A stretch of DNA of 57,969 nt from Puniceicoccales bacterium (GTDB lineage: Bacteria > Verrucomicrobiota > Verrucomicrobiia > Opitutales > JAIRKQ01): the NCBI GenBank assembly GCA_031268375.1, contig JAIRXJ010000017.1:1-57969 (forward strand), read 5' to 3'. Below the pieces are notes generated by a model. That model ran no database searches and was not told the origin of the DNA. It saw only the letters and a program-made list of their open reading frames with translations. Below are positions 5,805 to 57,874 of this stretch, one piece after another (positions within the stretch are counted from its first letter, which is position 1; every line of letters begins with the position of its first letter). The position numbers and the translations under genes were made by a program.

Positions 5805-6506
5805 TTGAGTATGGACAAAAAAAATTTTATCACCGTGGTGGTTATGGGTTGTTTAAATTTTTGTCATAGTTCAACGGTAACCGCTGCACTAGAAAAAACC
5901 GTAGAGGAATCCATTATGCCACCTCTACACCGTCGGGCAAATGCATTTTGGACATCGGTTAACCATGGAGGCACACAGACTTTTTCGCTGGAAGATACAA
6001 GAAGACCTGGCATCTGGAAGAAAGGTATCGCCATGGTGGGCAGCATCCCAAGGTATACGCGAAATGTAGAAATTGATAGCAGCCCCCTGAGATCCATGGA
6101 GGAGAGTGAGAAAGATACCATTAATGCCATTGACGCTACCGCCCATGCCACAAAGAAATCTAAGAAGAAGAAGAAGGATGTGGAGGAGTCGATCCATCGA
6201 TCCCGCTACCAGAACCTGGTATTGGAAAACGCTGCCCAGGCATACCATGACCACCCCAACGACATTGATGGTTATAGGAATGCCCTTAGGGAGTCCCTCA
6301 AGGACTTTCCGATACCTCCTGACCACCGCCATGAATATGAAGCCATACTGCTCGACGAAGAAGCGAGGTATTTCCACTTCATACTGTCTGAGAAAGCTGA
6401 CAGGGGGAAGGGTATGAAAACCATACTTATTATACTTAAAAATAGCATTTGGTGGGTAGCGTGTTCCCTCTTGATTATTCTCTTTTTATATGTCTTTATC
6501 AGGTAA
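5805..6506 (+). CDS. Hypothetical protein with hydrophobic N-terminus, poly-Lys tract and C-terminal transmembrane segment
   Basis: 233-aa ORF with TTG at 5805 (ATG at 5811). N-terminal FITVVVMGCLNFC, KKSKKKKKD, and C-terminal IWWVACSLLIILFLYVFI. Confidence 0.45.
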   Translation: MSMDKKNFITVVVMGCLNFCHSSTVTAALEKTVEESIMPPLHRRANAFWTSVNHGGTQTFSLEDTRRPGIWKKGIAMVGSIPRYTRNVEIDSSPLRSMEESEKDTINAIDATAHATKKSKKKKKDVEESIHRSRYQNLVLENAAQAYHDHPNDIDGYRNALRESLKDFPIPPDHRHEYEAILLDEEARYFHFILSEKADRGKGMKTILIILKNSIWWVACSLLIILFLYVFIR

Positions 6507-6863: not shown

Positions 6864-8669
6864 CTATTGGTCAAATAGGCTATCGATGGGCTTCACATAT
6901 CGATTGCCGGATGCATCTGCAAATACGATGTGATCTTCGTTGGCCTCTGAAATGAAAACTGTAGAATCAGCACTTATCGGACCGCTACCATCGATGATTC
7001 TATCATCGACTTTTATTTTGCACGAATTTTTATCGCACATCACTTCCGATACCCTATGGCTGTGGAAAAAACTATCGACTGCCTTTTGAAGATCGGTGTA
7101 GCCACCCGATCGCATAGGAGAAGCTTTCGCAAAAGAGCGGTCTTCATTGGTCCTTTTGCGTTTTGAAGCGACATTTTCATTTTCATAGCCGTGCAAAACG
7201 TATTGTTTCTGCCTTAGAAGGTTTTTTTCATGTTTTACTGCAAGGGCCGCCCGCGTATACTCTACCTTCGATATTTGGCTATCGTAGGTTCTCACCCCAA
7301 TGAATGCTATAATCGTAAAGGCCAGAGGTAATACCATCGCAGGCTTTTGCAAGACCGCCAAAGCATTACCGTAGGAAAACTGAGCCCTTAGTGACGCACG
7401 AGCATTTGAAATGGAAGATTGTAAGCTCGTGGCATAACTGGTACATGTCGTCCTAAAAGCATTGGTGGACTTTTTTAGGAAAGCGTGGAAGGATGTGAAT
7501 GGATAGGTAATGGCTTTTGCCGTAGCATTGATAAATTTTTTGATGGATAAGCACAGGAACCAAACCCCTTTGCATGCCATTTGGCTAGCAAAAATGGAAG
7601 CGGACACCAAAAACTTTGGGGCATTGGTCAGCTTTTGGTTGCCAAATTTGATAAGATTTCGGGATTTTGTCAAATGGGATCGCACAACATTGCTCCCCTT
7701 TGTCACCAGCAAGCATGCCCAGTCAACCGTGCGCATAACACCAACCTTCGTCACTTGCAAAGACACAACGAAGGCAAGTTTTAGCAAATGGGTAATTTGG
7801 AAAATAACTTTGGGGAATTGCCTGCAAAAGTTTGATATTGCCGATGCCAGCGTTGTTTTGACATGTCTGAATTTCTCAACAGCTTTACCAGCTTTTCCTT
7901 TGGCAGCCCTATACATTTGGACGATTTTGGCAGCCAATAAAGCAGTGACTTCCATCGCAGACTTGGATATTGCCTTTAAATTTTCGATTATTTTCGAAGG
8001 CTTGGCCGCTGAGACACGCTTGGCTTTTCCCTTGATTGTCCTATACGCTTGGACGATTTTGGCAACCAACGAAGTAGTAGCTTTCTTTATATGTTTAGAC
8101 ATTGCCTTTAAATTTTCGATTATTTTCGAAGCCTTGGCTGCCAAGGCACTCTTGGACTTCCCTTTGGCTGTCTTATACGCTTGTATGGTTTTAGCAGCCA
8201 ACGAAGTAGTAGCTTTCGTTATATGTTTAGGTATTGCTTTTAAATTTTCGACTATTTTCGAAGCCTTGGCCACCAAGACACGCTTGGCTTTTCCCTTGGT
8301 TGTCCTATACGCTTGGACGATTTTGGCAACCAACGAAGTAGTAGCTTTCGTTATATGTTTAGACATTGCCTTTAAATTTTCGATTATTTTCGAAGCCTTG
8401 GCTGCCAAGGCACTCTTGGACTTCCCTTTGGCTGTCTTATACGCTTGTACGGTTTTAGCAGCCAACGAAGTAGTAGCTTTCTTTATACGTTTAGACATTG
8501 CCTTTAAATTTTCGATTATTTTCGAAGGCTTGGCCGCCAAAGCACGCTTGGTGAAGTCCTTTACTGCCGTTGAAAATTTTCGTATTTTCTTTGACAAATT
8601 TTCACGAAAGTTGGGCGAGGTATTTTGCAAACATCTATCTTTTTTGAAGAAATTTTTCATATGAATCAA
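6864..8669 (-). CDS. Lys/Ala-rich tandem-repeat protein with one predicted TM segment and a unique C-terminal domain
   Basis: 601-aa ORF starting 25 nt downstream of the glgP stop on the same strand (operon-like). Five 44-aa repeats AAKxSKIIENLKAMSKHIxKATTSLxAKxVQAYxTxKGKxKx. TM candidate AMVLPLAFTIIAFIGV. Confidence 0.7.
   Translation of the reverse strand: MIHMKNFFKKDRCLQNTSPNFRENLSKKIRKFSTAVKDFTKRALAAKPSKIIENLKAMSKRIKKATTSLAAKTVQAYKTAKGKSKSALAAKASKIIENLKAMSKHITKATTSLVAKIVQAYRTTKGKAKRVLVAKASKIVENLKAIPKHITKATTSLAAKTIQAYKTAKGKSKSALAAKASKIIENLKAMSKHIKKATTSLVAKIVQAYRTIKGKAKRVSAAKPSKIIENLKAISKSAMEVTALLAAKIVQMYRAAKGKAGKAVEKFRHVKTTLASAISNFCRQFPKVIFQITHLLKLAFVVSLQVTKVGVMRTVDWACLLVTKGSNVVRSHLTKSRNLIKFGNQKLTNAPKFLVSASIFASQMACKGVWFLCLSIKKFINATAKAITYPFTSFHAFLKKSTNAFRTTCTSYATSLQSSISNARASLRAQFSYGNALAVLQKPAMVLPLAFTIIAFIGVRTYDSQISKVEYTRAALAVKHEKNLLRQKQYVLHGYENENVASKRKRTNEDRSFAKASPMRSGGYTDLQKAVDSFFHSHRVSEVMCDKNSCKIKVDDRIIDGSGPISADSTVFISEANEDHIVFADASGNRYVKPIDSLFDQ
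7884..8543. repeat. 5 x 132-bp coding tandem repeat with alternating 264-bp higher-order units
   Basis: tatacgc anchors at 8042 and 8174 are 132 bp apart. ctatac at 8041 and 8305 are 264 bp apart. The repeat covers residues 43-262 of ORF 6864..8669. Confidence 0.9.
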
Positions 8670-11327: not shown

Positions 11328-12356
11328 ATGGATAGAATAACTAATAACAACGGTTTAAACAGATTTTTCAATGGGGCAAAACAAGCTGTAAGTGCTGCCG
11401 GTCGTAAAATTGTAAATGCTGCCGGTCGTACAATTAAGAACGTTACCAATGCTCCGTCGTTGGAGCCATTAATGCGGAATGCACAGCCATTAGTGCAAGC
11501 ATTTGCACAACCATTTGATTTGGGAGCTTTTCCGGAGCTTTTTGTAACTCCCATAGGTAACATGTTTAGAGAGTGGAGTTCAGAACGTGTTGACTTCATT
11601 CGAAATCATTGCATGAAACAATTCGAAGAATGCACGGGCGACGGCGTTACCACCATAGAAGATTCGAATAAGGTTTTTGTTGCCAGGAGCGAATTTGGTC
11701 CGGATATTTCCGTTAAGCAGGCACAAGATTTTGGATTCATACTGCCTGGAGACATTGATGAGCGTGTAAGACATAATCCAAATCTAAAGGTAAAGCCATT
11801 GTTTATAAGGTGCTTTGGGGTAGGATCAGGAAACACCAAAGATCAAATTTTAGAGGGGGCAAAAAATATACTTTCATTGCCAACCGATAGGCTGGAATTA
11901 GCTAATAGCCTGATACTGTCTCACATCGAATCGGTACAGGAGAGGTTTAAATCCAACCAAGATGTTTTGGTCGTTCCCCTTATAACAGGATTTTCTCAGG
12001 GAGGTATGTTTGCCAGCGCCATAGCACTAAAAAATAACTTCCCGTCGATAACTTTCAATGGTTTAGGCCTTGGGAAAGGTGGTTGTGATTTTGTTGGAGA
12101 GACGGATTGGGCAAGGGCCCAACGACAGCAAAATAGTCACATTGCCATGGTTGTTGACCATGATTTTGTGGCATCGCCAGATTCAGCATGGCGCAATGCC
12201 ACAAGAATACCAGGTTGCATTGTTGGGATACCAAGCGATAATCCTACCATTAATAAAATGTATGAAATCCACTTCTATAGTGAATATTTCGATAGAGCAC
12301 GTCAAGACTATCTTACTTCTCATCAATTAGACACAAGAGACCGACTAGTTGCCTAG
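11328..12356 (+). CDS. Alpha/beta-hydrolase (lipase/esterase-like) orphan protein
   Basis: Nucleophile-elbow-like ITGFSQGGMFAS (GxSxG) with downstream Asp/His candidates (VVDHDF, YEIHFY). Long non-homologous N-terminus. The stop TAG lies in the CCTAGG at the IS-remnant junction. Confidence 0.55.
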   Translation: MDRITNNNGLNRFFNGAKQAVSAAGRKIVNAAGRTIKNVTNAPSLEPLMRNAQPLVQAFAQPFDLGAFPELFVTPIGNMFREWSSERVDFIRNHCMKQFEECTGDGVTTIEDSNKVFVARSEFGPDISVKQAQDFGFILPGDIDERVRHNPNLKVKPLFIRCFGVGSGNTKDQILEGAKNILSLPTDRLELANSLILSHIESVQERFKSNQDVLVVPLITGFSQGGMFASAIALKNNFPSITFNGLGLGKGGCDFVGETDWARAQRQQNSHIAMVVDHDFVASPDSAWRNATRIPGCIVGIPSDNPTINKMYEIHFYSEYFDRARQDYLTSHQLDTRDRLVA

Positions 12357-12945
12357 GCTCAGGACTCATAAATTCAAATAAAAGAGGAAAGAACAGGCGA
12401 TGGGGATGGAAGAGAAGAAGGTGTGGTGGCAGTGGTCGTAGCGAGTGGCGATGCGGTGCCAATCCTTCAATCTGCCGAACTGTGGCATCGTCTGTATAGG
12501 GTTACATCGTATGGGATTTGGATTTTTCGGTTGCACCGTGATGGAATACAGGGCATCACGTCGTGCTGCAGCAGCTCTCTTCGGAACCAATCAGCATCAT
12601 ATCCTTTATCCGCCAGAACGAATTCAGCTGCCGGGAGATCTTCCAGTAGTTTGGCGGCTCCCTTGATGTCATTGATGTTTCCAGCAGTCAAAGGCAACCT
12701 TACCGGGTGGCCGTCGCCATCGCAAACGGCATGCAATTTGCTGTTCAAACCACCTTTGTACGTCCGTAGCACAGCGAAGCCTCCCTTTTCACAGGCTGGC
12801 CGCACGAGATGTACCTTCAAATGCACCGTGTCTATCATTAACACTTTCGTCCCTGCTTTTGCTAACTTCTGCAAAATTCTGACACATACCCCAAGTTTAC
12901 TCCATCGGATGAAAAGCTTTGCCTTCTTGCCCTCTAAGTATTGTC
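12352..12945 (-). mobile_element. IS5-family (IS427/IS1031-like) transposase remnant, 5-prime truncated and frameshifted
   Basis: ORF 12467..12874 reads ...FIRWSKLGVCVRILQKLAKAGTKVLMIDTVHLKVH...LADKGYDADWFRRELL...IPSRCNRK. The expected C-terminus GRLKDWHRIATRYDHCHHTFFS sits in another frame (ORF 12366..12590). The N-terminal part of the transposase is missing. Confidence 0.8.
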
Positions 12946-12988
12946 AAAGAATTATTCCTCCAAAGGGTTTACAAATTTTTATGCTAAG

Positions 12989-14365
12989 TTACCTACCGAT
13001 GTGATTGTAATTTTTCTTAAAAATTGGAATTCCAAAAATGTAAAAAGTCTTTTTTTGTTTTTCTCTTTTTATTTTAAAAATTTCCAGACAAAATATGGCC
13101 ATCCTGGTTTTCTTTGGTTCGTTACTTATGCCAAATATAAACTTTTTAAATAAATGTTTCCACGGCCGTGGAGCAGAGACAATGTATGAACTTTTTGGTT
13201 GTGTAAAATCATGCTTTTTAAATTCCTGCACCATGGTATCAACACACGCTTTCCACGAAAAATTCTTTGCCCGTTTAAGCCCTTTCTGGGACAATTCTTG
13301 CCGCAATTTTTCATCGTAATATACCTTTTCATAGGCGGCTACCATGGCTTCATCGTTTGTGGGGTCGATTAAAATTCCGGCATCGCCAACAACTTCTGGC
13401 AGGGAGGTCACATTGGATGTGATTACTGGACATCCGCACTGCATGGCTTCGAGCGGGGGTAGTCCAAATCCTTCGTAGAGTGACACAAAAACACAACATT
13501 CAGCATGGGAATATAACGAAGCCAAATCCCCATCTTCCACATAACCGATCCTGATAATTTTCGTGCTATTTTCACCGAGACTTGCCATTTCAGCATCAAA
13601 AAATTCTTCAAAATCATCACAAACACAACCGGCAATAACAAAAACCAAATCATCGATATGGTTTTTTTCAGTAAATTTAATAAAGTTTCTGAGTGTAAAA
13701 ATGAGATTTTTTCGCGGTTCTATGGTGCTGACGGTGAAAAGATAACGCTTGCCTATGGGGATGCCGTATTTTATCCGAATTTGCCGGTTCTGCGTTCCAT
13801 CGACACATGGATAAAAGTTTGCACTTGCCGCCAATGATATTTGGGTAATTTTATGAGGGTCAATCTGTGGAAGTAGTCTAATGATGTCGCTTTTGGTAAA
13901 GTCTGAAATGGCAAATATATAATCCTTCAATGTTAAACTTTTTATGATGTCAAAAAAAACCGAATCTTTGTTGTGTAATGGACAAACCATTGGAATAAGG
14001 TCGTGAATAATGGTATAACAAATGATGCCGGTTTCTTTAATCCCTGGAAAAATAAAATAGCGGGGAGACAAAAAAATATCAAAGTCCTTTACGTCGCCGG
14101 AAAAGATTTTGGACGTAATTCCAATGCCACCTTTCGAGAAGACCTTTTTAACACGGTGGTAGGTATCGTAATCTGTCCCAGCGTATATTGCAACTTCAAG
14201 CTCAGGTCGTCTCAGTAGTTCTTTAAAAATATTATAAACAACGAAAAATATCCCTCGTCGGTCGTTATTATTTTTACATAGGCAAGCTTCTAAGACTTGA
14301 GCGTCATATAATACCCTGACTTTAGCTTTCCGATTAAATTTTTTCTTCAAAAGTAAGTTGCCCAT
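12989..14365 (-). CDS. Glycosyltransferase, GT-B fold family 1/4
   Basis: C-terminal signature [36 protein letters not shown]. About 80 aa of basic/hydrophobic tail follow the GT domain. Confidence 0.85.
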
Positions 14366-21080: not shown

Positions 21081-22598
21081 ATGGACACACCTATAACAAA
21101 TAAAAATAAAGCCCTCCAAGAAACAGAGACACCTAATTCAATCAAAGCATATTTTGCTAAACAGAATCCGCCTGGCATGGCAGCAGCAGAGCCACAGAGC
21201 AGCATGCCAACGAAATTGCTCGGTGATCGTATCGGTAAGGACATAGGGATTGGAGGATTTTTTCGTGCCCTTTGGAACTATATTTCGAATTCTTCGACCA
21301 AATCGTTGGACCAAGCAAAACTAAATGTGGCCGCAAAGGATTATTTGAAAAACAACTCAGGAGAAGTGGATAACATATTACGGGAAATTACCGCGAATAG
21401 GTCACCCCAAGACCCGCACATTGTTCATGCCTTCATTACAGCACTAAAAGAAATTGATCAAGAAAAATTTGATGGTCTTTGTGCCGCTGCAAAGGGCTTT
21501 GTCGATGGAGTCCTAACAGAAGGAGCTCAAACGTCATCCGGTATTACGCCGGCCAACATAAAACATGCCGTTGATTTGGTTGACCGGCTAAAGTCAGTGA
21601 TTAAATTTTCGCCATCTGCCCTTGCCCTACACTCGCTGGCACAAAAGCTTCCAGTAGACCAAATAGAAGCCCAAATAACGCCGGAATTGATAACATTTTG
21701 TAATGATTTCCCTAGATTAGCACAAAAGCTTCCAGCGGAACGAATAACGCCAGAGTTGATAACATTTTGTAATGATTGCCCTGAACAAGCGCGAACTCTG
21801 GCCGAAAGGCAGGATTTCCATCAAAAATCGTTTCGAGGAACAAATGACGATGAGGGGATGTTGCTGGTGTGCAATGATTCGGGATATAAGCCAGGAATTT
21901 TGGGACTAATTGACCAGGGGCTGTTTGAAGGTGACAGGCGGGATACTCGGATAGAAAGCTTTCTTAAAGATCAGGCTGTAACAAACAACCTTTTCTGCAA
22001 GGATGGCATACAGAGGTATGAAATGCCGCATATCACTTTGCCCAATGGGGTAGAAATTTTGAGTAATATTGGGAGATCCGACAGTGAATATTGTAAAAGT
22101 ACGAGTGGATCATACGATCAGGCTGCATATTTGAAATATATGCTCGATCAGTTTAAAACGGCATACGGGAGTACGGATGAAGCCATCAAGGCATTTAAGG
22201 TTTTTGTACAAAATTTTACGGGTACTGGGAATACTTGGGTGGGAGTTTTGACAAGACCACCAGCTGACGAGGCTGTTTTCCCCGGAATAGATATCCAAAA
22301 GAAAGCCAGCCTCATAGGCGGAACACTGGCGAAGAACAGGATACGATCAACGATGCGAATGGATGCAGATTTCAACATCACGTTTAATGCCACCGTTTGC
22401 GTATCGAATGAAGAGGGCATTCAACGGATTAATAAAACAACTAAATCCTCATTCCCCAAAGATACAATATGTGGGATAACAATAAGTTCGTACATTCCAG
22501 CTGTGATAAATGACACCATGGATCAGTGTGGACAAGAGGGGCGGCAAACGACCACCTTCGAAATAATAGGAAGTCTCGGCAGCGGAGGCTCAAACTAA
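21081..22598 (+). CDS. Hypothetical protein, orphan family, full-length paralogue
   Basis: 505-aa ORF. The first 125 aa or so are paralogous to ORF 22624..23082 (shared MAAAEPxSSMPTKLLGxRIGKxIGIGGFFRALWNYISNSSTKSL). Internal 81-bp duplication. No known motif recognised. Confidence 0.6.
   Translation: MDTPITNKNKALQETETPNSIKAYFAKQNPPGMAAAEPQSSMPTKLLGDRIGKDIGIGGFFRALWNYISNSSTKSLDQAKLNVAAKDYLKNNSGEVDNILREITANRSPQDPHIVHAFITALKEIDQEKFDGLCAAAKGFVDGVLTEGAQTSSGITPANIKHAVDLVDRLKSVIKFSPSALALHSLAQKLPVDQIEAQITPELITFCNDFPRLAQKLPAERITPELITFCNDCPEQARTLAERQDFHQKSFRGTNDDEGMLLVCNDSGYKPGILGLIDQGLFEGDRRDTRIESFLKDQAVTNNLFCKDGIQRYEMPHITLPNGVEILSNIGRSDSEYCKSTSGSYDQAAYLKYMLDQFKTAYGSTDEAIKAFKVFVQNFTGTGNTWVGVLTRPPADEAVFPGIDIQKKASLIGGTLAKNRIRSTMRMDADFNITFNATVCVSNEEGIQRINKTTKSSFPKDTICGITISSYIPAVINDTMDQCGQEGRQTTTFEIIGSLGSGGSN
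21639..21782. repeat. Internal tandem duplication (about 81-bp period) inside ORF 21081..22598
   Basis: gcacaaaagcttccag starts at 21639 and 21720. It encodes LAQKLP..(I/R)TPELITFCND twice. Confidence 0.7.
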
Positions 22599-23455: not shown

Positions 23456-24250
23456 GTGTCTAATGGTAAGAAGTTTTTTTTAATGTTTGTAGTTGTCTTG
23501 ATCCTTGGCAGCTCATGGGTTATTGTTTCTTTGAAAACAAATAAAACCCATTTAAAAATGCAGTTGGACGTTGAAAACCATAAAAAGACAGAGGGGGAGG
23601 AGACAATATTTTCATCTTTTACAAAAAAGGATTTTTCCTGGATGCGAAGCCTGAAAAAAGATAAATCTCCCATTGAGTTTGATTTATTCACATGTCCATC
23701 CGTATACAGCGAAAGCGGCAAAACAATGGTTAAAACCTATGATGTTCTCATGGTTGACGATACTTTTCCACTATATCTGTCTGAGGTTAGGAATAAGCCT
23801 TATCGAATAAAGGTGGAGGGATATTCGCAATCTAAAAATGATGATAAAACGGTCATCATGTTTAAGGATATCGAAACGGAGAAATATGGCGAATGTGCCG
23901 TTGGAGATAAGAATGCAGAGCTAAGGATACGGGTAATTGGGTTTGATGTGCAAGGTTATGAAAAAGATGGTGTTTACTACGAATTCCCTGTAGTCACGGT
24001 CAGCGATGATATTACCAAAAAGGAGATCGTCTTGACCAGTGAACAAAAATTTTTGGATAATGAATATCTACTCATCATAAAAGATTTCAACGGTAATGAA
24101 TATGTTTTTTATAATATCGGAGATAGTGTGTCAATGGGAGAAGCAACCTGTAAACTTTCTTCGTTCAACAAGAAGGAAGGGGTTGCCAAATTATCCTTAA
24201 AAGATGCCAATGGGCATGAGTTTACCAAAACTATACACCTAATCCGCTAG
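23456..24250 (+). CDS. Hypothetical membrane-anchored or secreted protein
   Basis: 264 aa with a GTG start and an N-terminal hydrophobic segment FFLMFVVVLILGSSWVIVSL. No homology recognised. Confidence 0.55.
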   Translation: MSNGKKFFLMFVVVLILGSSWVIVSLKTNKTHLKMQLDVENHKKTEGEETIFSSFTKKDFSWMRSLKKDKSPIEFDLFTCPSVYSESGKTMVKTYDVLMVDDTFPLYLSEVRNKPYRIKVEGYSQSKNDDKTVIMFKDIETEKYGECAVGDKNAELRIRVIGFDVQGYEKDGVYYEFPVVTVSDDITKKEIVLTSEQKFLDNEYLLIIKDFNGNEYVFYNIGDSVSMGEATCKLSSFNKKEGVAKLSLKDANGHEFTKTIHLIR

Positions 24251-30106: not shown

Positions 30107-30769
30107 TTATGGGAATAATAGGCCAGCACTTTTGGTCGAATCATCGTCCACGTAGGGCAAGCTAGCCACGGTGCACAGGGAAAATATCCATCGAAAAAAT
30201 GCCAATTGATGCCGCCTTTTGTCACGTTTTAGGCGTATGGTTTTTTCCTTACCTATTGTTAGGGACAAACGTTCATCGAATTCTTTTTCGAATGCATCAA
30301 TGGATTCCTTCTGCAACGCACGAAAAGATTTTTTGAAAACGGGAAATTTGACGTCCATCATTTTATTTTTTTCTATCGAGCGATTCGCGAAATCCTTGTC
30401 GAGCGTCTTGGATGAACCCTTTGGTATTTCTGCCAAAGGAGAAAGAGGGTATATTGCAATGCTTGGCCCACCATCCTTAAATACTTTTGGAAGGGACTCC
30501 AGTATCAGATTGTTTGCTTCGATGCTAAATTGTTCATCTTTCCACAAACGTTCCAACACTTGTAAAGATATTTTTTCCACGGACTGAATAACTGCCCCTT
30601 CCACAATAGGGAAGACTTTAGCAACTGGAACACAAAAGACAATATATTTTTCCTCCCAAGTATGTGGAACTGTACAATCAATGTAAATTTTAGGAGAATT
30701 AGGGAATGTAGTGATCGAGTAACACCTATTATTGTAATAAAAAGTTGTCTTTTGGATAAAAAGTGACAA
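30107..30769 (-). CDS. Hypothetical protein upstream of ddl
   Basis: 220-aa ORF, 21 nt upstream of the ddl ORF on the same strand. C-terminal hydrophobic stretch FFRWIFSLCTVASL. No motif recognised. Confidence 0.45.
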   Translation of the reverse strand: MSLFIQKTTFYYNNRCYSITTFPNSPKIYIDCTVPHTWEEKYIVFCVPVAKVFPIVEGAVIQSVEKISLQVLERLWKDEQFSIEANNLILESLPKVFKDGGPSIAIYPLSPLAEIPKGSSKTLDKDFANRSIEKNKMMDVKFPVFKKSFRALQKESIDAFEKEFDERLSLTIGKEKTIRLKRDKRRHQLAFFRWIFSLCTVASLPYVDDDSTKSAGLLFP

Positions 30770-50207: not shown

Positions 50208-50918
50208 ATGAAAATAGGTGGCATACAGAAAATTTCTCTTATCGATTTCCCTGGCAAAATTTCCTGCGTATTATTTACGCAGGGATGTAACTTCTGTTGC
50301 CCATTTTGCCACAACGAGTCCTTGGTTTTACCTGAAAAATTTGGGCCTCCCATGGAAGAGAATGAAGTATTTAATTTTTTAAACGCTAAAAAGGGAAAAA
50401 TTGAAGCCGTGGTAATATCCGGAGGAGAACCCACTTTGCAGGGCGACTTGGAAGACTTTTTAAAAAAAATAAAAGAGCTTGGTTTTCTGACAAAATTGGA
50501 TACCAATGGTTCGCGGCCAGAAGTCTTGGACAGCCTATACAAGGCGAAACTATTGGACTACGTTGCCATGGACATCAAGCACAGGTTCGAGAGGTATGCC
50601 GAAATCGCTAACGTTTCTGTTAGTATGGATAAAATAAAACGATCCGTAGATTTGATTAAAAACAGTGGGGTAGACTATGAATTCCGCACAACGGTCGTTT
50701 CAGAGTTTCATACATCCTATGACATAAGAAGTATAATATTCCAATTGTCTGGAGCAAAACGGTTTGTCCTGCAAGAATTTATTCCAGAACATGCCATGAA
50801 TAAGAATTTAAACAACGACGATTCTATTTTTGCTCTCCAAAATAAAATCATCCTAAGAGACATAATTAGTTTTGCCGAATCCCACATAGGAGAGTTCAAA
50901 ATTCGAGCGGCAAATTAG
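50208..50918 (+). CDS. Radical-SAM glycyl-radical-enzyme activase family protein (NrdG/PflA-like)
   Basis: FTQGCNFCCPFCHN (CxxxCxxC cluster) preceded by SLIDFPGKISCVLF, and SGGEPTLQ SAM-binding motif. 236 aa. Confidence 0.8.
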   Translation: MKIGGIQKISLIDFPGKISCVLFTQGCNFCCPFCHNESLVLPEKFGPPMEENEVFNFLNAKKGKIEAVVISGGEPTLQGDLEDFLKKIKELGFLTKLDTNGSRPEVLDSLYKAKLLDYVAMDIKHRFERYAEIANVSVSMDKIKRSVDLIKNSGVDYEFRTTVVSEFHTSYDIRSIIFQLSGAKRFVLQEFIPEHAMNKNLNNDDSIFALQNKIILRDIISFAESHIGEFKIRAAN

Positions 50919-51050
50919 GTATGATTTCGAAAATATAATCTTCCCCGTGGAAAGGAACGATTTGCTAAAAATTTTCCTTTGTGGGTAAATAAAGGTTGAC
51001 TAAATGTGTATGTCCATAATATTTCCTCATCCTCAATAAAGTTTTATATT

Positions 51051-51566
51051 ATGCCAATAGATACTTTTACAAACATCCTCCATGAGTTCGCAAGTAGAAT
51101 AAATTTGTCTGGATTACAAATTGATTCGTCTGGATATTGCTGCTTAGATGTGGATCAGGGAACGCTTATCCACATAAAACACGAAAACAAGCGCGACTCT
51201 ATGATATTTATTGCCGAAATCGGCCAAATTCCGGAAACCAATGCCGGAGCGGTGTTGCGCTACTTGCTCCGAATGAACAATAATCCGGAGGAAAGCAAAG
51301 GAATGACCCTGTCCTATAATGTGGAAAGTAACAATGCTGCCATTGGGTACCAATTTCCGTTGAGGTTTATGAACATAGATAAATTCGAAGAATTTTTCAA
51401 AATGTTCTTGGACGAAGTAGATCGTTGGAAGCAAAAGATGGTCCTCTACATACAAGGGACATTGCCAAAGGGAGAAGAGGCATCGGGTGGAGACGGCGGA
51501 GGAACATTATCTCCAACAGATTCAACTTTCCAAGGAAGTGTTCCCGAATTCATAATAGGGGCATGA
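51051..51566 (+). CDS. CesT/Tir-chaperone-like type III secretion chaperone candidate with Gly-rich C-terminal tail
   Basis: Start taken at MPIDTF. The pattern FTNILHEFASRINLSGLQIDSSGYCCLDVDQGTLIHIKHENKRDSMIFIAEIGQIP...VLRYLLRMNN...FEEFFKMFLDEVDRWK matches the usual class I chaperone layout. Tail is GEEASGGDGGG. Confidence 0.5.
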   Translation: MPIDTFTNILHEFASRINLSGLQIDSSGYCCLDVDQGTLIHIKHENKRDSMIFIAEIGQIPETNAGAVLRYLLRMNNNPEESKGMTLSYNVESNNAAIGYQFPLRFMNIDKFEEFFKMFLDEVDRWKQKMVLYIQGTLPKGEEASGGDGGGTLSPTDSTFQGSVPEFIIGA

Positions 51567-51665: not shown

Positions 51666-53204
51666 TTGATTTTTTCGTTGGAGCTTTTACATAAAAATAA
51701 TAGCGTCAATTCCGTGCGAATTAGATTTTCTTCTATCACAGTTATAGTGAGCTGTGTTTTCTTTTTAATTTTCCTGAGTGGTACTGCCCATGCTATCACC
51801 CATTCCACCATAAATTTTCCCATATCTCTACAGGAGTATCAAGCGTTGGAAGCCGGGAAAAACCTTTCGTTGGGGGGGATTTTAAAACATCGCATACAAG
51901 TTTCACCATTTAATTTGATCGCAACGACCCTGTTTCTGTGCGCAATTGTCCATACTTTCTTCGCCTCACAATTCATAGGGTTGTCTAAAAAAATTGCTGA
52001 CTCCAATGGGGGAAATTTACCGGGCAAACACTTTTTAGCAACCGTTTGCCATTTTTTCGGAGAGGTTGAAGCAGTTTTTGGGATTTGGGCAATTCCGCTG
52101 TTAATCTGCGTGGCCATCTTTTTCGGATGGCATGCGCTGGGACATTATTTCAACGGTGTCGTGAGTTTTGCGGAACCAATTTTTGTCGTCATTATTATGG
52201 CCATTTCGGCCACACGCCCGGTTTTGTCGTTTGCAGAGTCTATTTTGCAGCAAATTGCCAGCCTGGGAAAAAGAACGGTGGCGGCCTGGTGGATATCCAT
52301 TCTGACCGTCGCTCCATTTATGGGATCATTTATTACCGAACCCGCCGCCATGACCATAGGGGCCATGTTGCTTGCAAAACAATTTTACGATCTGCAACCT
52401 TCGAAAAAATTATGCTATGCTACCCTAGGATTGTTGTTCGTGAATGTCTCCGTCGGTGGAACATTGACCCATTTTGCAGCACCACCCATATTGATGGTTG
52501 CACACAAATGGCACCTAACGATTGGTCGAGTGTTTAGGTTACTAGGGTCGCATGCCATCGTGGGAGTCATTGCCAGTACACTGGTATACTATTTAATTTT
52601 CAGAAAAGAATTTTCCGATCTTCAAAGTAGATGTGGCGGTATCGATAAAAAACGGGATAGCAATAAGGCAATTCCGGTGGCGATTACCATTACCCACTGC
52701 CTATTCCTGGCGTGGACAGTATTAAATTTGCATACCCCCGCGCTGGTAATAGCAGGATTTTTATTTTTCCTAGCATTTGTGAAAGCCACTAAAACATATC
52801 AGGACGATGTGAGCTTGAAATCTCCCATTTTAGTCGGATTTTTCCTGGCTAGCCTGGTAACTTTTGGAGGGTTACAGGAGTGGTGGATATCTCCGGTACT
52901 AAGGAGTTTAAAAGAATTTCAGTTGTTTGTCGGTTCTACAATTTTGACCGCATTCAACGACAACGCGGCCATAACCTATTTATCTTCCCTCGTTGGCGAA
53001 TTTTCCACAAATCCATCCATGCAAAAGGCGGTCCTATCGGGGGCTGTAACGGGCGGAGGATTAACGGTGATAGCCAATGCCCCAAATCCTGCCGGGCAGA
53101 ATGTTTTGTCGAAATATTTCGTCGGTGGAATCTCGCCCCTATATTTATTCTTGGGAGCCATAGTTCCTACGCTATTGGTAGCCCTATGCTTTAACTGTTG
53201 GTAA
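51666..53204 (+). CDS. Multi-pass membrane permease (ion-transporter-superfamily-like, function unknown)
   Basis: 512-aa ORF (TTG start) with at least 10 hydrophobic segments. Motifs GSFITEPAAMTIGAML and VIANAPNPAG. I do not recognise the family precisely. Confidence 0.55.
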   Translation: MIFSLELLHKNNSVNSVRIRFSSITVIVSCVFFLIFLSGTAHAITHSTINFPISLQEYQALEAGKNLSLGGILKHRIQVSPFNLIATTLFLCAIVHTFFASQFIGLSKKIADSNGGNLPGKHFLATVCHFFGEVEAVFGIWAIPLLICVAIFFGWHALGHYFNGVVSFAEPIFVVIIMAISATRPVLSFAESILQQIASLGKRTVAAWWISILTVAPFMGSFITEPAAMTIGAMLLAKQFYDLQPSKKLCYATLGLLFVNVSVGGTLTHFAAPPILMVAHKWHLTIGRVFRLLGSHAIVGVIASTLVYYLIFRKEFSDLQSRCGGIDKKRDSNKAIPVAITITHCLFLAWTVLNLHTPALVIAGFLFFLAFVKATKTYQDDVSLKSPILVGFFLASLVTFGGLQEWWISPVLRSLKEFQLFVGSTILTAFNDNAAITYLSSLVGEFSTNPSMQKAVLSGAVTGGGLTVIANAPNPAGQNVLSKYFVGGISPLYLFLGAIVPTLLVALCFNCW

Positions 53205-53347: not shown

Positions 53348-56300
53348 ATGTTACCCCATACGGAGCAAAAAATGAGCATTCAGAAAAATTTGGAATTAAA
53401 ACGCGTGATTAGCACCCCCATAGAAGAAAAGCCGCGATTCGATTGGAAACGTCTCGTCGAAAATGATAGCGAGTGTGTCTGTGAGTACTACAATATTGGA
53501 GAAATTGCAGATAAAATCGGAGAGACGGTCGTGGACATTTCCTTGGTTAATGGGCAGTCCGATATTTTCGACGATGCGAACAAGCGATTGGTCATTTCGT
53601 TGACCAGACAAGTTTGTCGCTGTATCAATCTACGGGAAACCTGTCCACCCAGCCAAGATCTTGTGAATGACGCCATTGAAGAAATTTTAGTAAGAAATAA
53701 TAGGAGGGAAATGGCCCATGCCTTTGTGGCGAAGTGTAGGTTCGAAAACGAATACTATAGGCGAATCAAAGAAAGTCACAAATTAAGCTTAATCAGGCGA
53801 GATGGCAGTGTCGTGCCATGGAATATTGAAAAAATAAAACATGCGGTTGAATTGGCATTTATTTCCCAACACCAAAGCCCCGAGCGGGCTGATAAAATCT
53901 CTCGGGCAGTGACAAAGAATATATTGGATGAAGGGTTGTCATTCATTCATATTGAAAATGTTCAAGATTGCGTACAGGAAGAATTGATGCGCCAGGGGGA
54001 GTATAAGATCGCCGAGGCATATATCCTGTACAGGGCTGAACGGGCGAAATTGAGGGAACTGTCAGACATTGAGAAAGAATATACAGCAACTCAGGATCAG
54101 GGACCCATTATCGTGGTGAAGAATGCCGACGATGATAGCTTTTTGTGGGATGGATCAGAGCTGCACAAACGAATAGCGTTCGCGAACGCAGGCCTTGATT
54201 CACACCTAACATTCGATGAAATATTGTCATCCCTGCAGGAAGGGATTTCGTCGGAAGTTAGTATTTCGGAATTAAAAAATTATATCATCAAAAATGCACA
54301 GCGGTTAATAGAAAAAGATCCCGTCTTGGCAGTATTTGCATCGAGGATACAGTTGCTTTATTTGTATGAGGACATATTCGATTGGAACTGTACCACCGAT
54401 AGCCTAGAATGTTTGAACGGAAAACAGGCGGTTGCTTTTGTAAAATATGTCAAAACAGCAGTTGCGGATAACCTACTTCACGGGGACATGCTCAAGTATG
54501 ATCTTAAACAGCTTTCTCAGGTCATGGATATCACCTATGACCGTGAGTTCGACGCCATAGCCTTGCAAAGTCTAAAGGATCACTATTTCATGCGGAATTT
54601 TGATAATCGAATTTTAGAAACTCCCCAGATGCTTTGGATGCGTGCCGCGATGGGAGCATTTCTGGCAAAGGAACATGCCGAAGGCGACGTCATCGAATGC
54701 TACAAATTGATGCGGGACAGAAAGTTCTGCCTGGCAACCCCCACTTTGTACTATGCGGGAACACCGAAACCCCAGATGATGTCGAGCTACGTCTTTCACA
54801 TTGAAGATAACATGCAAAGCATCATGACCCGTGGAATTTCCGACAATGCTTTCATCGCAAAGTGGGGAGGAGGCATTGGAGGCTCTTGGACCAGCGTCCG
54901 CGAAAAAGGTGCAAGAATTTCGGGAACTAGGGGACGAGCCCCCGGAGTGATACCATTTCTACAACTCCACCAGCACCAGTTAGCCATTGCAAATCAGGGG
55001 ACCGAGCGCCGCAGAGGTCGCGGAGCAGCGTATCTGGAAATTTGGCACAACGACATAATGGAGTTTATAGACTATCGCAAAAGGCATGTAAATGGAAGCG
55101 TACCGGATGATACCCTTGGGACAGTACTATGGATCCCGGATATTTTCATGCACCGCCTACAACAGGATGCCGATTGGACGTTGTTTAATTCAGAAGATGC
55201 CAGAGGTTTACATGAATTTTACGGTGATGAATTTGATAAAAAATATGGAGAGCTGGAACGGCGTGTTATGGAGGGTAAAGCCTCCGGCAAAATGGTAACG
55301 TGTCGAGAGGTTTGGCAAAAAGTCATGCAGCGAATTTTTGAGGCAGGATACCCCAAGATTGCATTTAAGGATACGTGCAATCGGGCGAACATGTGCAAAA
55401 ATGGTACAATTCACGCGGCAGGGTTGTGCCTGGAACACGTCATGAACACAACCTACGGTGAGACTGCCGTGTGCAATACGGGTGCATTGGACATCAACAA
55501 ACATTTGACCTCGGATGGTTCCCTCGATAAAAATGCCCTATGCCATACGATAGCGGTCGCCACCCGCACGTTGGATGCGATGATAGACGCTAATTTTTTC
55601 TCTTCACAGGCCGCTGAAATATTTGCCCAAAAATACCGGGCCATAGGGTTGGGCATGATGGGATTACAAAATGCACTCTACAACAAAAATCTTTCATTTA
55701 ATTCCGAAGAAGCCATCAGGTTCGGCGAGGAATGTGCGGAAATAATTTCCTATGAAACAATCAAAGAGTCATGTGAACTGGCAAAAAAATATGGAGCCTG
55801 CCAAATATTTGAATCTTCGGAATGGGCAAAGGGGAAGCTACCATTTGACTTTTCCAAGGATAAAAACCCTGGCACATTATCCTGGGATATTCTGCGGGAC
55901 GAGGTAAAGAAAAACGGCATAAGAAATGCGTATTTGAATGCATTTTCCCCTACGAGAAAAATTGCCCGCCTTTTGGGATGCTATCCCGAGTTATCTCCGG
56001 CGACGAAAAATGTTTTCACAAAGCGTTTGGACGATAATTACGAAATGATGATTATTTCCCCAGAATTGGTAAGAATTTTGAAAAAATCTGGCATTTGGAA
56101 TAAGGCAATCCATAAGCAAATTCGATATTTTGAAGGTGAATTGGCTGCCATCGATGAGATTCCCGAATCCATAAGGGAAATGTTTTCCACCGCCTACATG
56201 ATTGACAATGAGGCAATCATCGAAGGAGCTGCCCGGCGACAAAAATGGATCGATCAATCCCAGTCCCTGAGGTTGTTCCTGGGAAGTCCAAATCTAAAAA

Positions 56301-56506
56301 CCCTATCGGATATGTTTGTCATTGCTTGGAGAAAAGGGATCAAAGGGATTTATGATGTTAAATCGGCGGGTTTTTTCTCCGGCATGAACATGGTTGATCC
56401 CTGCGAGAATCATCAGGGGCTGAATAATTTTCAACAACCGAATTACACCGATAGCACCGATGCCGTGATGAATGCTTTGGCCAAACTCAATGAGATAAAC
56501 AGATAA
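53348..56506 (+). CDS. nrdA: Ribonucleotide reductase large-chain homologue (class-I-like, N-terminal ATP-cone segments) with non-canonical active-site residues
   Basis: ATP-cone KLSLIRRDGSVVPWNIEKIKHAVE (aa 145-168). Barrel motifs ATPTLYYAGTPKPQ, WGGGIGGSW, AAYLEIWHNDIMEF, GLCLEH, ETAVCN, WIDQSQSL. Substitutions are described in the findings. Confidence 0.85.
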   Translation: MLPHTEQKMSIQKNLELKRVISTPIEEKPRFDWKRLVENDSECVCEYYNIGEIADKIGETVVDISLVNGQSDIFDDANKRLVISLTRQVCRCINLRETCPPSQDLVNDAIEEILVRNNRREMAHAFVAKCRFENEYYRRIKESHKLSLIRRDGSVVPWNIEKIKHAVELAFISQHQSPERADKISRAVTKNILDEGLSFIHIENVQDCVQEELMRQGEYKIAEAYILYRAERAKLRELSDIEKEYTATQDQGPIIVVKNADDDSFLWDGSELHKRIAFANAGLDSHLTFDEILSSLQEGISSEVSISELKNYIIKNAQRLIEKDPVLAVFASRIQLLYLYEDIFDWNCTTDSLECLNGKQAVAFVKYVKTAVADNLLHGDMLKYDLKQLSQVMDITYDREFDAIALQSLKDHYFMRNFDNRILETPQMLWMRAAMGAFLAKEHAEGDVIECYKLMRDRKFCLATPTLYYAGTPKPQMMSSYVFHIEDNMQSIMTRGISDNAFIAKWGGGIGGSWTSVREKGARISGTRGRAPGVIPFLQLHQHQLAIANQGTERRRGRGAAYLEIWHNDIMEFIDYRKRHVNGSVPDDTLGTVLWIPDIFMHRLQQDADWTLFNSEDARGLHEFYGDEFDKKYGELERRVMEGKASGKMVTCREVWQKVMQRIFEAGYPKIAFKDTCNRANMCKNGTIHAAGLCLEHVMNTTYGETAVCNTGALDINKHLTSDGSLDKNALCHTIAVATRTLDAMIDANFFSSQAAEIFAQKYRAIGLGMMGLQNALYNKNLSFNSEEAIRFGEECAEIISYETIKESCELAKKYGACQIFESSEWAKGKLPFDFSKDKNPGTLSWDILRDEVKKNGIRNAYLNAFSPTRKIARLLGCYPELSPATKNVFTKRLDDNYEMMIISPELVRILKKSGIWNKAIHKQIRYFEGELAAIDEIPESIREMFSTAYMIDNEAIIEGAARRQKWIDQSQSLRLFLGSPNLKTLSDMFVIAWRKGIKGIYDVKSAGFFSGMNMVDPCENHQGLNNFQQPNYTDSTDAVMNALAKLNEINR

Positions 56507-56539: not shown

Positions 56540-57874
56540 TTGGTATCATTCTCAATGAAAGAACATATCGATTCTATTTTTATCCCTTCCATTGGCCATT
56601 GGTTGGATGGCAAAAAACCGGAACAGGTTGCGAGGTTTTGCACTGACACACGTTCGCTGTGTCCAGGCGATTGCTATGTTGCCCTAACCGACATGCGGGA
56701 TGGGCACATTTTTCTCGGAGATGCTAGGACTAACGGTGCCTCATGTGCTATTGTTTCCCGCCCAAAACCCTCCATTGACCTGCCTCAATTTGTTTGTGAC
56801 GATCCAAATGTAGCCATGGTCAAAATGGCAAAGCTAGCACGATCGATGTTCAGGGGCACAATGATCGCCATCACTGGAAGTTTTGGAAAAACCACAACAA
56901 AAGATATTTTAAAGTTGCTCCTTGGCATTGAAAAAAATGTAACGCTTGAAAACAAAAATGGTCAGCGGGGGGTGCCCATGACGCTTGCCACCGTGACCAA
57001 TGGTGAATCCTTTGCGGTCGTCGAAGTTGGCATTGATGCTATTTCTACAATGGATAGGCTTGTGGAACTTATTGTGCCCCACATTGCCATACTGACGGGA
57101 ATCGGCAAGATTCACATGTCAGGGATGGGGAGTGAATCCACAATCGCCCGTGAAAAAAGCAAATTATTGGAGAAGGCCATAAAAAATAATGGCCATGGAA
57201 TATTTCCCGAAGAATGCCTGAGGTTTAGTGCTTGCCGAAAAATTCAAGGGCACTGTAGGGTTGTCAAAGAAAATGGAGAAGATATGTGCTACCATATGGC
57301 TACGAAAGGTGACCAATATCATGTCACGGTGACGTTTTGGGGAAAAGATTTAACCTTTGCCATGCCTCGTCTGATGAGCCAAGGAATTGTCAAGAATTTT
57401 GTCCTGGCATGTATCTGTGCCCTAGAATGTGGCATAGGAGCGGCTAATATTCAAAAGCGTATCAGTCTGTGGAAGCCGTCCAAATGGCGTGGAGAAATCA
57501 TAGCGACGACACCAAGGACATATTTCGCCGATTGCTACAATGCAAACTTCATAGCCTTTGCCAACTCCCTGGCTCAGTTCGACCGATTATTTCCCCATGG
57601 GAGTCGGCTATTTATCATTGGCGCCTTGATCCGTTGTGAGGTAGGGGATGGCGTGATTGATGACAATGCCACCCTTTTTCAAAATTTGCCACTCCGTGAA
57701 AATGATGGGGTGATCGTCATAGGGGAATCTGAGAACTTTTCGATGGATACCATAAATTGCGATTGGAAAGTATTTCCATCGGCATCACAGGCAATGGAAA
57801 TGGTAACAAATTTTCATGGGGTTGTATACCTAAAGGGCCATCGCATCTACGGGTTGGAAAGTTTAATATGTTAA
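56540..57874 (+). CDS. murF: UDP-N-acetylmuramoyl-tripeptide--D-alanyl-D-alanine ligase
   Basis: DTRSLCPGDCYVALTDMRDGHIF, Mur-ligase P-loop AITGSFGKTTTKD, NKNGQRGVPMTL, EVGIDAIS. TTG at 56540 or ATG at 56555. Confidence 0.8.
   Translation: MVSFSMKEHIDSIFIPSIGHWLDGKKPEQVARFCTDTRSLCPGDCYVALTDMRDGHIFLGDARTNGASCAIVSRPKPSIDLPQFVCDDPNVAMVKMAKLARSMFRGTMIAITGSFGKTTTKDILKLLLGIEKNVTLENKNGQRGVPMTLATVTNGESFAVVEVGIDAISTMDRLVELIVPHIAILTGIGKIHMSGMGSESTIAREKSKLLEKAIKNNGHGIFPEECLRFSACRKIQGHCRVVKENGEDMCYHMATKGDQYHVTVTFWGKDLTFAMPRLMSQGIVKNFVLACICALECGIGAANIQKRISLWKPSKWRGEIIATTPRTYFADCYNANFIAFANSLAQFDRLFPHGSRLFIIGALIRCEVGDGVIDDNATLFQNLPLRENDGVIVIGESENFSMDTINCDWKVFPSASQAMEMVTNFHGVVYLKGHRIYGLESLIC

Follow-up and report, generated by a model that had tools for sequence, protein, structure and literature searches.

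A candidate beta-independent, nucleotide-binding or regulatory paralogue of the class I ribonucleotide reductase large subunit in Puniceicoccales

The large subunits of ribonucleotide reductases (RNRs) are normally active enzymes or, in a few viruses, repurposed dead relics. The relics include the inactive R1 homologues of the beta-herpesviruses, UL45 of human cytomegalovirus (HCMV) and M45 of murine cytomegalovirus (MCMV), which are kept without a small subunit, have lost the residues needed for reduction, indeed essentially the whole catalytic apparatus, and have been put to other use with the gain of other motifs, such as the RHIM. Here we describe an nrdA-like gene from a 57,969-nucleotide stretch of a Puniceicoccales bacterium (assembly GCA_031268375.1, contig JAIRXJ010000017.1, positions 1 to 57,969; hereafter the window), where an intact open reading frame (ORF) on the forward strand (53348-56506) codes for a 1052-residue homologue of the class I RNR alpha chain. 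Its features would place the clade to which it belongs, a bacterial lineage, between those two states. With moderate confidence, we propose that the protein descended from a verrucomicrobial class I (NrdAz-type) RNR large subunit and now serves, independently of a beta subunit, as a nucleotide-binding or regulatory paralogue.

The closest described proteins are the NrdAz-type class I alpha chains, namely Pseudomonas aeruginosa NrdA (5IM3), the Chlamydia-type proteins of model PRK12365 and the canonical NrdA of Opitutae/Puniceicoccaceae (e.g., P0028), with which the window protein shares the order of domains: an N-terminal extension, an ATP-cone, a degenerate cone region, the all-alpha domain and the ten-stranded barrel. 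Pfam recovers the ATP-cone at residues 149-233 (53792-54046, + strand; 83.8 bits), matching the functional first cone of P. aeruginosa NrdA (5IM3 residues 31-130), the all-alpha domain at residues 400-474 (54545-54769, + strand; PF00317, 65 bits), which by alignment includes the apical phosphate loop A-T464-P-T, and the barrel at residues 479-1002 (PF02867, 472 bits, E 2.5e-141). The P. aeruginosa enzyme is the best solved relative in a phmmer search (E 1e-159) and the best Foldseek match (E 5e-60) of an AlphaFold model, which shows a class I alpha fold. This model was built on a deeper alignment (predicted local distance difference test, pLDDT, 78.8), as one based on the clade alone was poor (pLDDT 62), and its confidence is low at the finger-loop tip, in loops 1 and 2, and in the tail, with the finger loop itself below a pLDDT of 50.

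Profile searches against curated cutoffs gave a divided picture. The nearest NCBIfam models are those of NrdA, with PRK07207 (695 bits; cutoff 965) and PRK12365 (619 bits; cutoff 1350) both below cutoff, and the broad model TIGR02506 (NrdE_NrdA; 525 bits) is the only one of the NrdA type to be passed (cutoff 341). All NrdJ models stayed below their cutoffs (TIGR02504, 283 bits vs. 400), as did NF005401 for a "ribonucleotide reductase-like protein" (90.7 bits vs. 906); the window protein has no Pfam match to the Gly_radical or NRDD domains, and an exact-sequence look-up of it returned no record. Judged by its sequence, the protein is a class I (NrdAz-type) RNR alpha homologue, and a first-pass annotation made from the DNA letters alone had correctly recognized an RNR large chain with a conserved scaffold. 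Public databases likewise annotate the proteins of the clade as "ribonucleoside-diphosphate reductase subunit alpha", i.e., as ordinary NrdA, a label from which anyone reconstructing the metabolism of termite-gut symbionts would wrongly infer aerobic synthesis of deoxynucleoside triphosphates (dNTPs). Translation probably begins at ATG 53372 (Met9), giving a protein of 1044 residues: this codon has a GGAG 7 nt upstream, while the annotated ATG at 53348 lacks a Shine-Dalgarno sequence, and several orthologues (loci L013, L014 and L018) start at the equivalent MS(I/T/V)QKN.

We assigned the catalytic and radical-transfer residues using two independent alignments, one made with HMMER against 5IM3 and human RRM1 and the other with MAFFT/hmmalign against 92 canonical verrucomicrobial NrdA proteins, which agree at the key columns. 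The following counts refer to the 27 sequence clusters of the clade. In strand betaA (QMMSSY, 54773-54790, + strand, with Met477 and Met478 in place of Leu and Ser), the equivalent of Escherichia coli C225 is Ser480 (54785-54787), as PQMMSSY aligns without gaps to PQLSSCY, and Ser occupies this position in all 27 clusters. The first-pass annotation was right that the cysteine is absent and was off by one residue in naming Tyr481 as its replacement; Tyr481 corresponds to the aromatic residue after the Cys column, which is present in all 121 aligned sequences. In the finger loop (GLCLEH, 55421-55438, + strand), the N437 equivalent is Gly692, a column that holds Gly in 15 and Asn in 12 of the clusters, whereas the thiyl Cys (C439) and E441 are kept as Cys694 and Glu696, both invariant in 27/27. 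They are followed by His697, which is equally invariant in the clade and replaces a canonical Ile. The C462 equivalent on strand betaF, Cys709 in ETAVCNTG (55460-55483, + strand), is likewise kept and is invariant in the clade.

The radical-transfer pathway fares differently. In strand betaJ (GIYDVKSAGFF, 56345-56377, + strand), Tyr1002 retains the Y730 equivalent in the window protein, while the clade as a whole has Tyr in 17, His in six, Asn in three and Ser in one of the clusters; Y731 is replaced by Asp1003 (Asp in 20, Glu in seven). Further along the strand, K1005, G1008 and F1009 do not vary in the clade, and A1007 hardly does. The distal phosphate-binding loop and its helix (PTRKIARLLGC, 55949-55981, + strand; canonical PTATISNIMGT) show the change of PTATI to PTRKI (residues 868-872) in all members, with Arg870 and Lys871 invariant. 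Gly692, Tyr1002-Asp1003 and PTRKI, together with the retained Cys694, Glu696 and Cys709, had been read in the same way by the first pass, and both alignments bear this out: neither restores Cys, Asn or the Tyr-Tyr pair at the canonical columns.

The C-terminal tail (56378-56503, + strand) comprises a variable disordered linker followed by a conserved amphipathic helix. After Phe1009, both sequence and length vary across the clade, and the region is modelled as disordered (pLDDT <50). As had been claimed, the tail has a single Cys, the non-conserved Cys1019, and thus no Cys-pair shuttle; canonical relatives end in C-x-x-C (ECEACQ), and the pair is absent, together with C225 and Y731, from 27/27 clusters. 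In its place, the clade conserves the helix at residues 1035-1050 with the pattern D-x-T-x-A-[MV]-x-x-x-L-x-x-[FL]. We considered whether this helix might be an internalized NrdB tail; it has no convincing similarity to the alpha-binding C-terminus of canonical NrdB (…SLDSVSDDEL), and we set this possibility aside.

The nucleotide-binding elements have been retained. The specificity (effector) site segment (54806-54946, + strand) keeps D487, K505, R518, I524, G526 and T527, as in both canonical enzymes and the degenerate relatives described below, and loop 2 (NQGTERRRGRG, residues 549-559; 54992-55024, + strand) is invariant in the clade and carries the fixed changes G553E, K554R and S558R. 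Thus, relative to canonical verrucomicrobial NrdA, with which it shares 41% identity, the window protein retains the Cys and Glu of the finger loop, the Cys of betaF, the specificity site, and a Gln and an Arg in loop 2. It differs in the C225 to Ser change, the N437 to Gly change (in the window's subclade), the Y731 to Asp/Glu change, the variable Y730 position, the missing tail Cys pair, the PTRKI loop, 65 fixed clade-specific substitutions, the lack of an adjacent nrdB and its hosts, which are anaerobes with nrdD.

These features also set the protein apart from other described systems. Its likeness to HCMV UL45 and MCMV M45 is one of analogy rather than of close kinship, as it is bacterial and keeps the ATP-cone, the specificity site, the Cys439/Glu441/Cys462 equivalents and a constrained catalytic site. 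With the class II NrdJ enzymes, it shares independence of a beta subunit, the lack of a Tyr dyad and a pocket beside the finger-loop Cys that is free for an adenosyl group; class II enzymes, however, have retained the Cys pair and the Asn as well as their tail cysteines, and the window protein scores below the NrdJ cutoffs and is clearly class I-derived. With class III (NrdD and its activase NrdG), which is encoded beside or near the gene in relatives and in the window, it shares the barrel superfamily, the finger-loop thiyl Cys, and independence of oxygen and NrdB. It differs from class III in lacking the NRDD/glycyl-radical domain and the Zn ribbon, in having K-S-A-G-F rather than R-I-V-G-Y, and in carrying its bottom-face Cys on betaF rather than on betaA.

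The clade is sharply delimited. A search of 5.8 billion proteins recovered 26 clusters at 53-93% identity, followed by a sharp drop to 41% for canonical Opitutae/Puniceicoccaceae NrdA, and in a 50%-identity library (1.84 billion proteins) the entire clade collapses to one representative. A scan of GTDB found the gene in 21 species-level metagenome-assembled genomes, nearly all of them entered as "Puniceicoccales bacterium" and carrying isolate codes (e.g., Gsp477, Kf353 and Roe453) that denote lower-termite gut metagenomes (PMC11707648). Pairwise ratios of nonsynonymous to synonymous substitution rates (dN/dS) for the whole gene are 0.03-0.08 across many pairs, with dS reaching about 1; by region, the ATP-cone is under the tightest constraint (0.01-0.04), and the tail has the highest values (0.09-0.24). 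The clade of about 27 sequence clusters is thus under strong purifying selection, which upholds the earlier claim that the substitutions are not random decay. Of the checks that had been suggested on orthologues, the shared C225, Y731, PTRKI and tail changes were found throughout, along with purifying selection; the loss of N437 was not, being confined to 15/27 clusters, which points to a stepwise erosion of the catalytic residues.

Beyond the clade, the 150 top-ranking representatives include about 14 clusters, defined at 50% identity, of NrdA-like proteins that lack the thiyl Cys (P0122, P0123, P0125, P0127, P0128, P0138, P0142, P0158, P0159, P0165, P0168, P0187, P0210 and P0211). They also lack C225 and the Tyr dyad and have kept the residues of the ATP-cone and the specificity site. 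RNR phylogeny papers and full-text literature searches yielded no described inactive bacterial NrdA paralogue, and these clusters apparently constitute an undescribed set of bacterial RNR-alpha pseudoenzymes, with P0142 and P0158 looking like independent losses. In a neighbour-joining tree (862 columns, 100 bootstraps; long-branch attraction is possible), P0029, P0043, P0122, P0128, P0123, P0125 and P0127 join the window's clade with 99% bootstrap support, all together forming the sister group of canonical Opitutae NrdA. In all seven, the equivalents of C439, E441 or both are missing (P0029 has the Cys without the Glu), every one lacks C225 and the Tyr dyad, and nrdB is not nearby. At least part of this grouping is supported by derived residues common to the clade and its degenerate relatives, namely the LYYAGT-like, IAFKD and HQHQLAIA motifs and K1005. 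In the degenerate relatives, the catalytic-site columns are scrambled while D487, K/R505, R518, I524, G526 and T527 of the specificity site are kept almost throughout, suggesting that the common selected property is the binding of effectors or nucleotides rather than catalysis. Only the window's clade has an intact, though remodelled, catalytic site.

Three loci of these and canonical relatives merit mention in their own right. In one (L090, 804-5009), the gene directly after that of P0127 codes for an ATP-cone and matches class II RTPR over its N-terminal part (TIGR02505, 57 bits; the contig ends within it); by its sequence, P0127 is another dead class I alpha beside an oxygen-independent RNR. 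The P0122 locus (L088, 6582-13772), from the same sample series as P0029, codes for a TLC-type ATP/ADP (nucleotide) translocase, DciA and a deoxycytidine monophosphate deaminase, which suggests an intracellular, nucleotide-importing lifestyle. At a canonical Opitutae locus (L032, 8778-9860), the NrdB beside nrdA has a Leu at the place of the radical Tyr (E-N-I-H-A-D-S-L) and ends in …SLDSVSDDEL; from this residue it is read as a class Ic-like small subunit.

Gene neighbourhoods of canonical verrucomicrobial nrdA and of the clade differ in a consistent manner. First, nrdB adjoins canonical nrdA, immediately upstream, in 58 of 59 loci; across 582 kb from 34 loci that represent the clade and its degenerate relatives, it is missing throughout. 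Second, in the subclade that includes the window (group A), the typical order is Na_H_antiport_3 - nrdA-like - murF - sufBD-like. In the window, the Na_H_antiport_3 membrane protein gene (51666-53204, + strand), conserved upstream in this subclade, and murF (56540-57874, + strand), conserved downstream in most of it, are the immediate neighbours. Further upstream, 2.4 kb from the nrdA-like gene, lies an nrdG coding for a class III activase of the NrdG2 type (50208-50918, + strand; TIGR02495, 210.7 bits vs. a cutoff of 131). The first pass had correctly described a permease and murF rather than nrdB as the neighbours and an NrdG-type activase at this distance. Third, the sister subclade (group B) shows the order nrdD - nrdA-like - Fe/Mn superoxide dismutase (SOD), with nrdD directly upstream and on the same strand in 7/7 loci with upstream DNA; nrdD is also found at one group-A locus.

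The group-B NrdD is canonical in its RIVGY glycyl-radical motif, Zn ribbon and MCCR finger loop, while its ATP-cone (L003, 7695-9845; L006, 7724-9874) is marginal (21-25 bits) and lacks the N-terminal KRDG-type motif; the cone of the adjoining nrdA-like protein is strongly conserved. No group-B locus has nrdG near the nrdA-like gene, and in group A an upstream pair of nrdG and cesT is seen in only 6/11 informative loci. This lineage of the anoxic lower-termite gut can supply itself with dNTPs through class III nrdD/nrdG, and the presence of class III nrdD in the lineage accounts for the nrdG of the window; in the simplest explanation, this nrdG codes for the activase of an NrdD whose gene lies elsewhere in the genome. 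None of the 35 ORFs scanned in the window is nrdB, nrdD or a B12-related gene, and no B12-related or extra radical S-adenosylmethionine (SAM) gene is conserved near the clade loci.

With the betaA Cys, the Asn, an intact Tyr pathway, the tail cysteines and nrdB all lacking, canonical class I reduction by the window protein is excluded, to the extent that residues and gene content can speak to it. Conservation in the clade extends to the ATP-cone, to the specificity site and to a catalytic site that has been remodelled and become more basic. On the reading we propose, the protein would still form the alpha fold, possibly as a dimer. The cone would take up ATP/dATP, the specificity site would be occupied by a dNTP effector, and the altered catalytic site would accept a phosphorylated nucleotide. 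The role of the protein would then be that of a nucleotide-pool sensor, regulator or buffer rather than of a reductase, and it may cooperate with the class III enzyme whose gene adjoins its own in the sister subclade. The C-terminal amphipathic helix on its flexible linker may have replaced the CxxC tail as an element for docking a partner. Such a protein would be a class I alpha left orphaned in anaerobes after the loss of its beta, with the sister lineages displaying the fully degenerate end state. The whole would then provide a natural series for asking what an RNR alpha offers besides reduction (nucleotide sensing, pool buffering or control over a different RNR class) and which property depends on which residues.

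Several observations weigh against this proposal. To begin with, the absence of nrdB was established over the 34 loci and their 582 kb, and not over whole genomes. Class III components occur near the gene in both subclades, as nrdD in group B and nrdG in group A, which could mean a mechanistic rather than a regulatory link. Moreover, the catalytic site is not relaxed in the clade: 14 of its 18 mapped positions are invariant in 27/27 sequences, compared to 35% for the whole barrel, and the invariant set includes Cys694, Glu696, Cys709, loop 2 and both phosphate loops. It is not obvious that a pure allosteric sensor would need the thiyl Cys, the Glu and the betaF Cys. Many of the 65 positions fixed in the clade and different from canonical enzymes are basic and near the catalytic site. 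Their net basic gain (N528R, S558R, W670K, D684K, A870R, T871K and N975R, plus the new His697) looks like adaptation to a new ligand or chemistry, and the remodelled pocket, as far as can be argued from these residues, would still bind something specific and might support chemistry. Further, position 478 (Met478, 54779-54781) alternates between Met and Cys among the close group-B proteins P0018-20 and P0023-25 (QMMASY vs. QMCASY); by beta-strand geometry (i-2), this position would lie on the same face of the strand as the lost Cys, two residues before it. Finally, no binding partner or output of the protein was identified.

These observations bear on an alternative that we regard as unlikely, namely that the protein has remained a radical enzyme, which may be a reductase of a non-canonical kind, with the Cys694 thiyl started by something other than NrdB. 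The initiator could be a 5'-deoxyadenosyl donor housed in the space that the missing Tyr dyad has freed, as adenosylcobalamin is in class II, or a radical-SAM partner, while the bottom face might consist of Cys709, Met/Cys478 and Glu696 working with another reductant such as formate. The first-pass annotation had left this route open beside that of a non-catalytic R1 paralogue. The latter is the better supported, by the residue set, the consistent lack of nrdB, the class III genes and the relatives without the thiyl Cys; the former survives in part, in that the catalytic site with its Cys694, Glu696 and Cys709 is invariant across the clade along with loop 2 and the phosphate loops, unlike in the degenerate relatives, where these positions drift. 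The fixed changes around the catalytic site, the Met/Cys exchange at position 478 and the position of the gene next to nrdD or near nrdG are all in keeping with such an enzyme. In class II, moreover, the space between betaJ and the finger-loop Cys takes up the adenosyl group (Burnim et al., PMC9531940), and class III chemistry uses one conserved Cys plus a Met or Cys, with formate or thioredoxin as the reductant (PMC9669993).

Against a radical enzyme stands first the nature of the cysteines: the betaA Cys that was lost is the one that class III keeps, and the betaF Cys that was kept is the one that class III lacks (PMC9669993). There is also no cofactor insertion or domain in the window protein, and the NrdJ model falls short of its cutoff. 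N437, which in work attributed to Kasrayan et al. 2002 is said to be essential in class I, is Gly in the window protein; the clade loci show no conserved B12-related gene and no additional radical-SAM gene in the neighbourhood; and sister lineages have lost the thiyl Cys altogether. A fully specified form of this idea would have the clade as an unrecognized RNR-fold radical enzyme: a class I-derived alpha without beta or Tyr pathway, generating the Cys694 thiyl through a bound 5'-deoxyadenosyl source or a radical-SAM/glycyl route shared with class III, and relying on the sulfur groups of Cys709 and Met/Cys478 at its bottom face and on a reductant other than thioredoxin. We consider that form rather improbable. 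Were the radical-enzyme idea true, it would amount to a new way to initiate thiyl-radical chemistry in a class I scaffold, and in its fully specified form also to an evolutionary bridge between the aerobic and anaerobic reductases.

A thiol-based, non-radical function is a similarly doubtful proposition. Here, Cys694 and Cys709, with Glu696 and His697, would act as a redox or oxidative-stress switch, or the protein would be a hydrolytic or transfer enzyme, in either case with a part in the protection or control of the class III RNR, which is sensitive to oxygen. This would fit a catalytic site conserved without an evident radical source, the new invariant His697 beside Glu696, the new invariant Cys residues at 348, 683, 796, 818 and 878, and the conserved order in the sister subclade, where a SOD gene follows the nrdA-like gene. 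The SOD adjacency is, however, absent from the window's own subclade, the finger loop, which bears on the spatial arrangement of the new Cys and His residues, is modelled at a pLDDT below 50, and we know of no precedent for thiol or redox chemistry in the RNR fold.

We find it very improbable that the protein is a glycyl-radical enzyme in which Gly1008 of VKSAGF is activated by the NrdG encoded 2.4 kb upstream and then oxidizes Cys694. The invariance of K1005, G1008 and F1009, with A1007 nearly so, the NrdG2-type activase on the same strand, and the loss of the Tyr dyad that would fill the space beside Cys694 speak for it, and the first-pass annotation had raised a loose resemblance of KSAGFF to the glycyl-radical signature. 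This hint found no support. The K-x-x-G is inherited from the L-R-S-L-G-A of canonical enzymes (Gly in 75/92 and Arg in 92/92), with Lys replacing the conserved Arg, while the host's own NrdD has RIVGY. The residues after F1009 are variable and modelled at low confidence, leaving no ordered hairpin or glycyl-radical domain, in line with the lack of a Gly_radical or NRDD match, and Gly1008 sits at the outer end of betaJ, six residues past the Y730 position and probably too far from Cys694. The linkage to the activase is confined to the 6/11 informative group-A loci, with none in group B, and nrdD explains the activase.

An ordinary class I reductase working with an nrdB elsewhere in the genome has the TIGR02506 score above cutoff, the public annotation as the alpha chain of a ribonucleoside-diphosphate reductase and the restriction of the nrdB search to loci in its favour. 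It is highly improbable nonetheless, being already contradicted by the residue set, with C225, Y731 and the tail Cys pair missing from every cluster, a Y730 position that varies between Tyr, His, Asn and Ser, and N437 lost in the window; in addition, the specific NrdA equivalogs stay far below their cutoffs, and the nrdB found next to nearly all canonical relatives is at none of the clade loci. A decaying pseudogene or functionless relic, which the loss of several catalytic residues might suggest, deserves next to no credence, as the 1052-codon ORF is intact, the gene is conserved over 21 species-level genomes and the low dN/dS of many pairs refutes it.

Outside the coding regions, little was detected. 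No NrdR boxes precede the nrdA-like gene, the one match with three mismatches elsewhere in the window being below the chance number, and an Rfam scan of window positions 1-57969 gave no family at the gathering score, with no match to a transfer RNA, a riboswitch (e.g., cobalamin) or a small RNA. Scans for promoters and terminators returned nothing beyond the shuffled expectation, and there is no terminator-like site between nrdD and the nrdA-like gene in L003.

Some further neighbours are of interest for the biology of the hosts. Between nrdG and the antiporter gene lies a gene for a CesT-family type III secretion chaperone (window 51006-51566), and a gene for a type III secretion system needle-like protein occurs near the orthologue in L001 (1087-1650); the termite-gut Puniceicoccales of the clade appear to be host- or protist-associated. 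We considered the window protein as a secreted effector in view of CesT and rejected this, since the membrane-protein gene intervenes and only the closest relatives possess the chaperone. A stand-alone gene for a 240-residue SufBD core follows murF in most group-A loci (L008 12227-12934, L011 14568-15275 and others), the equivalent place being just past the 3' end of the window; in L001, it comes directly after the nrdA-like gene, with other suf genes not nearby. Many sizeable ORFs of the window have no Pfam family (5-1240, 5805-6506, 6864-8669, 11328-12356, 12423-13004, 21081-22598, 23456-24250, 30107-30769 and 42409-43674), one of them showing only a weak apolipoprotein-like coiled-coil match, and these may code for lineage-specific or secreted proteins.

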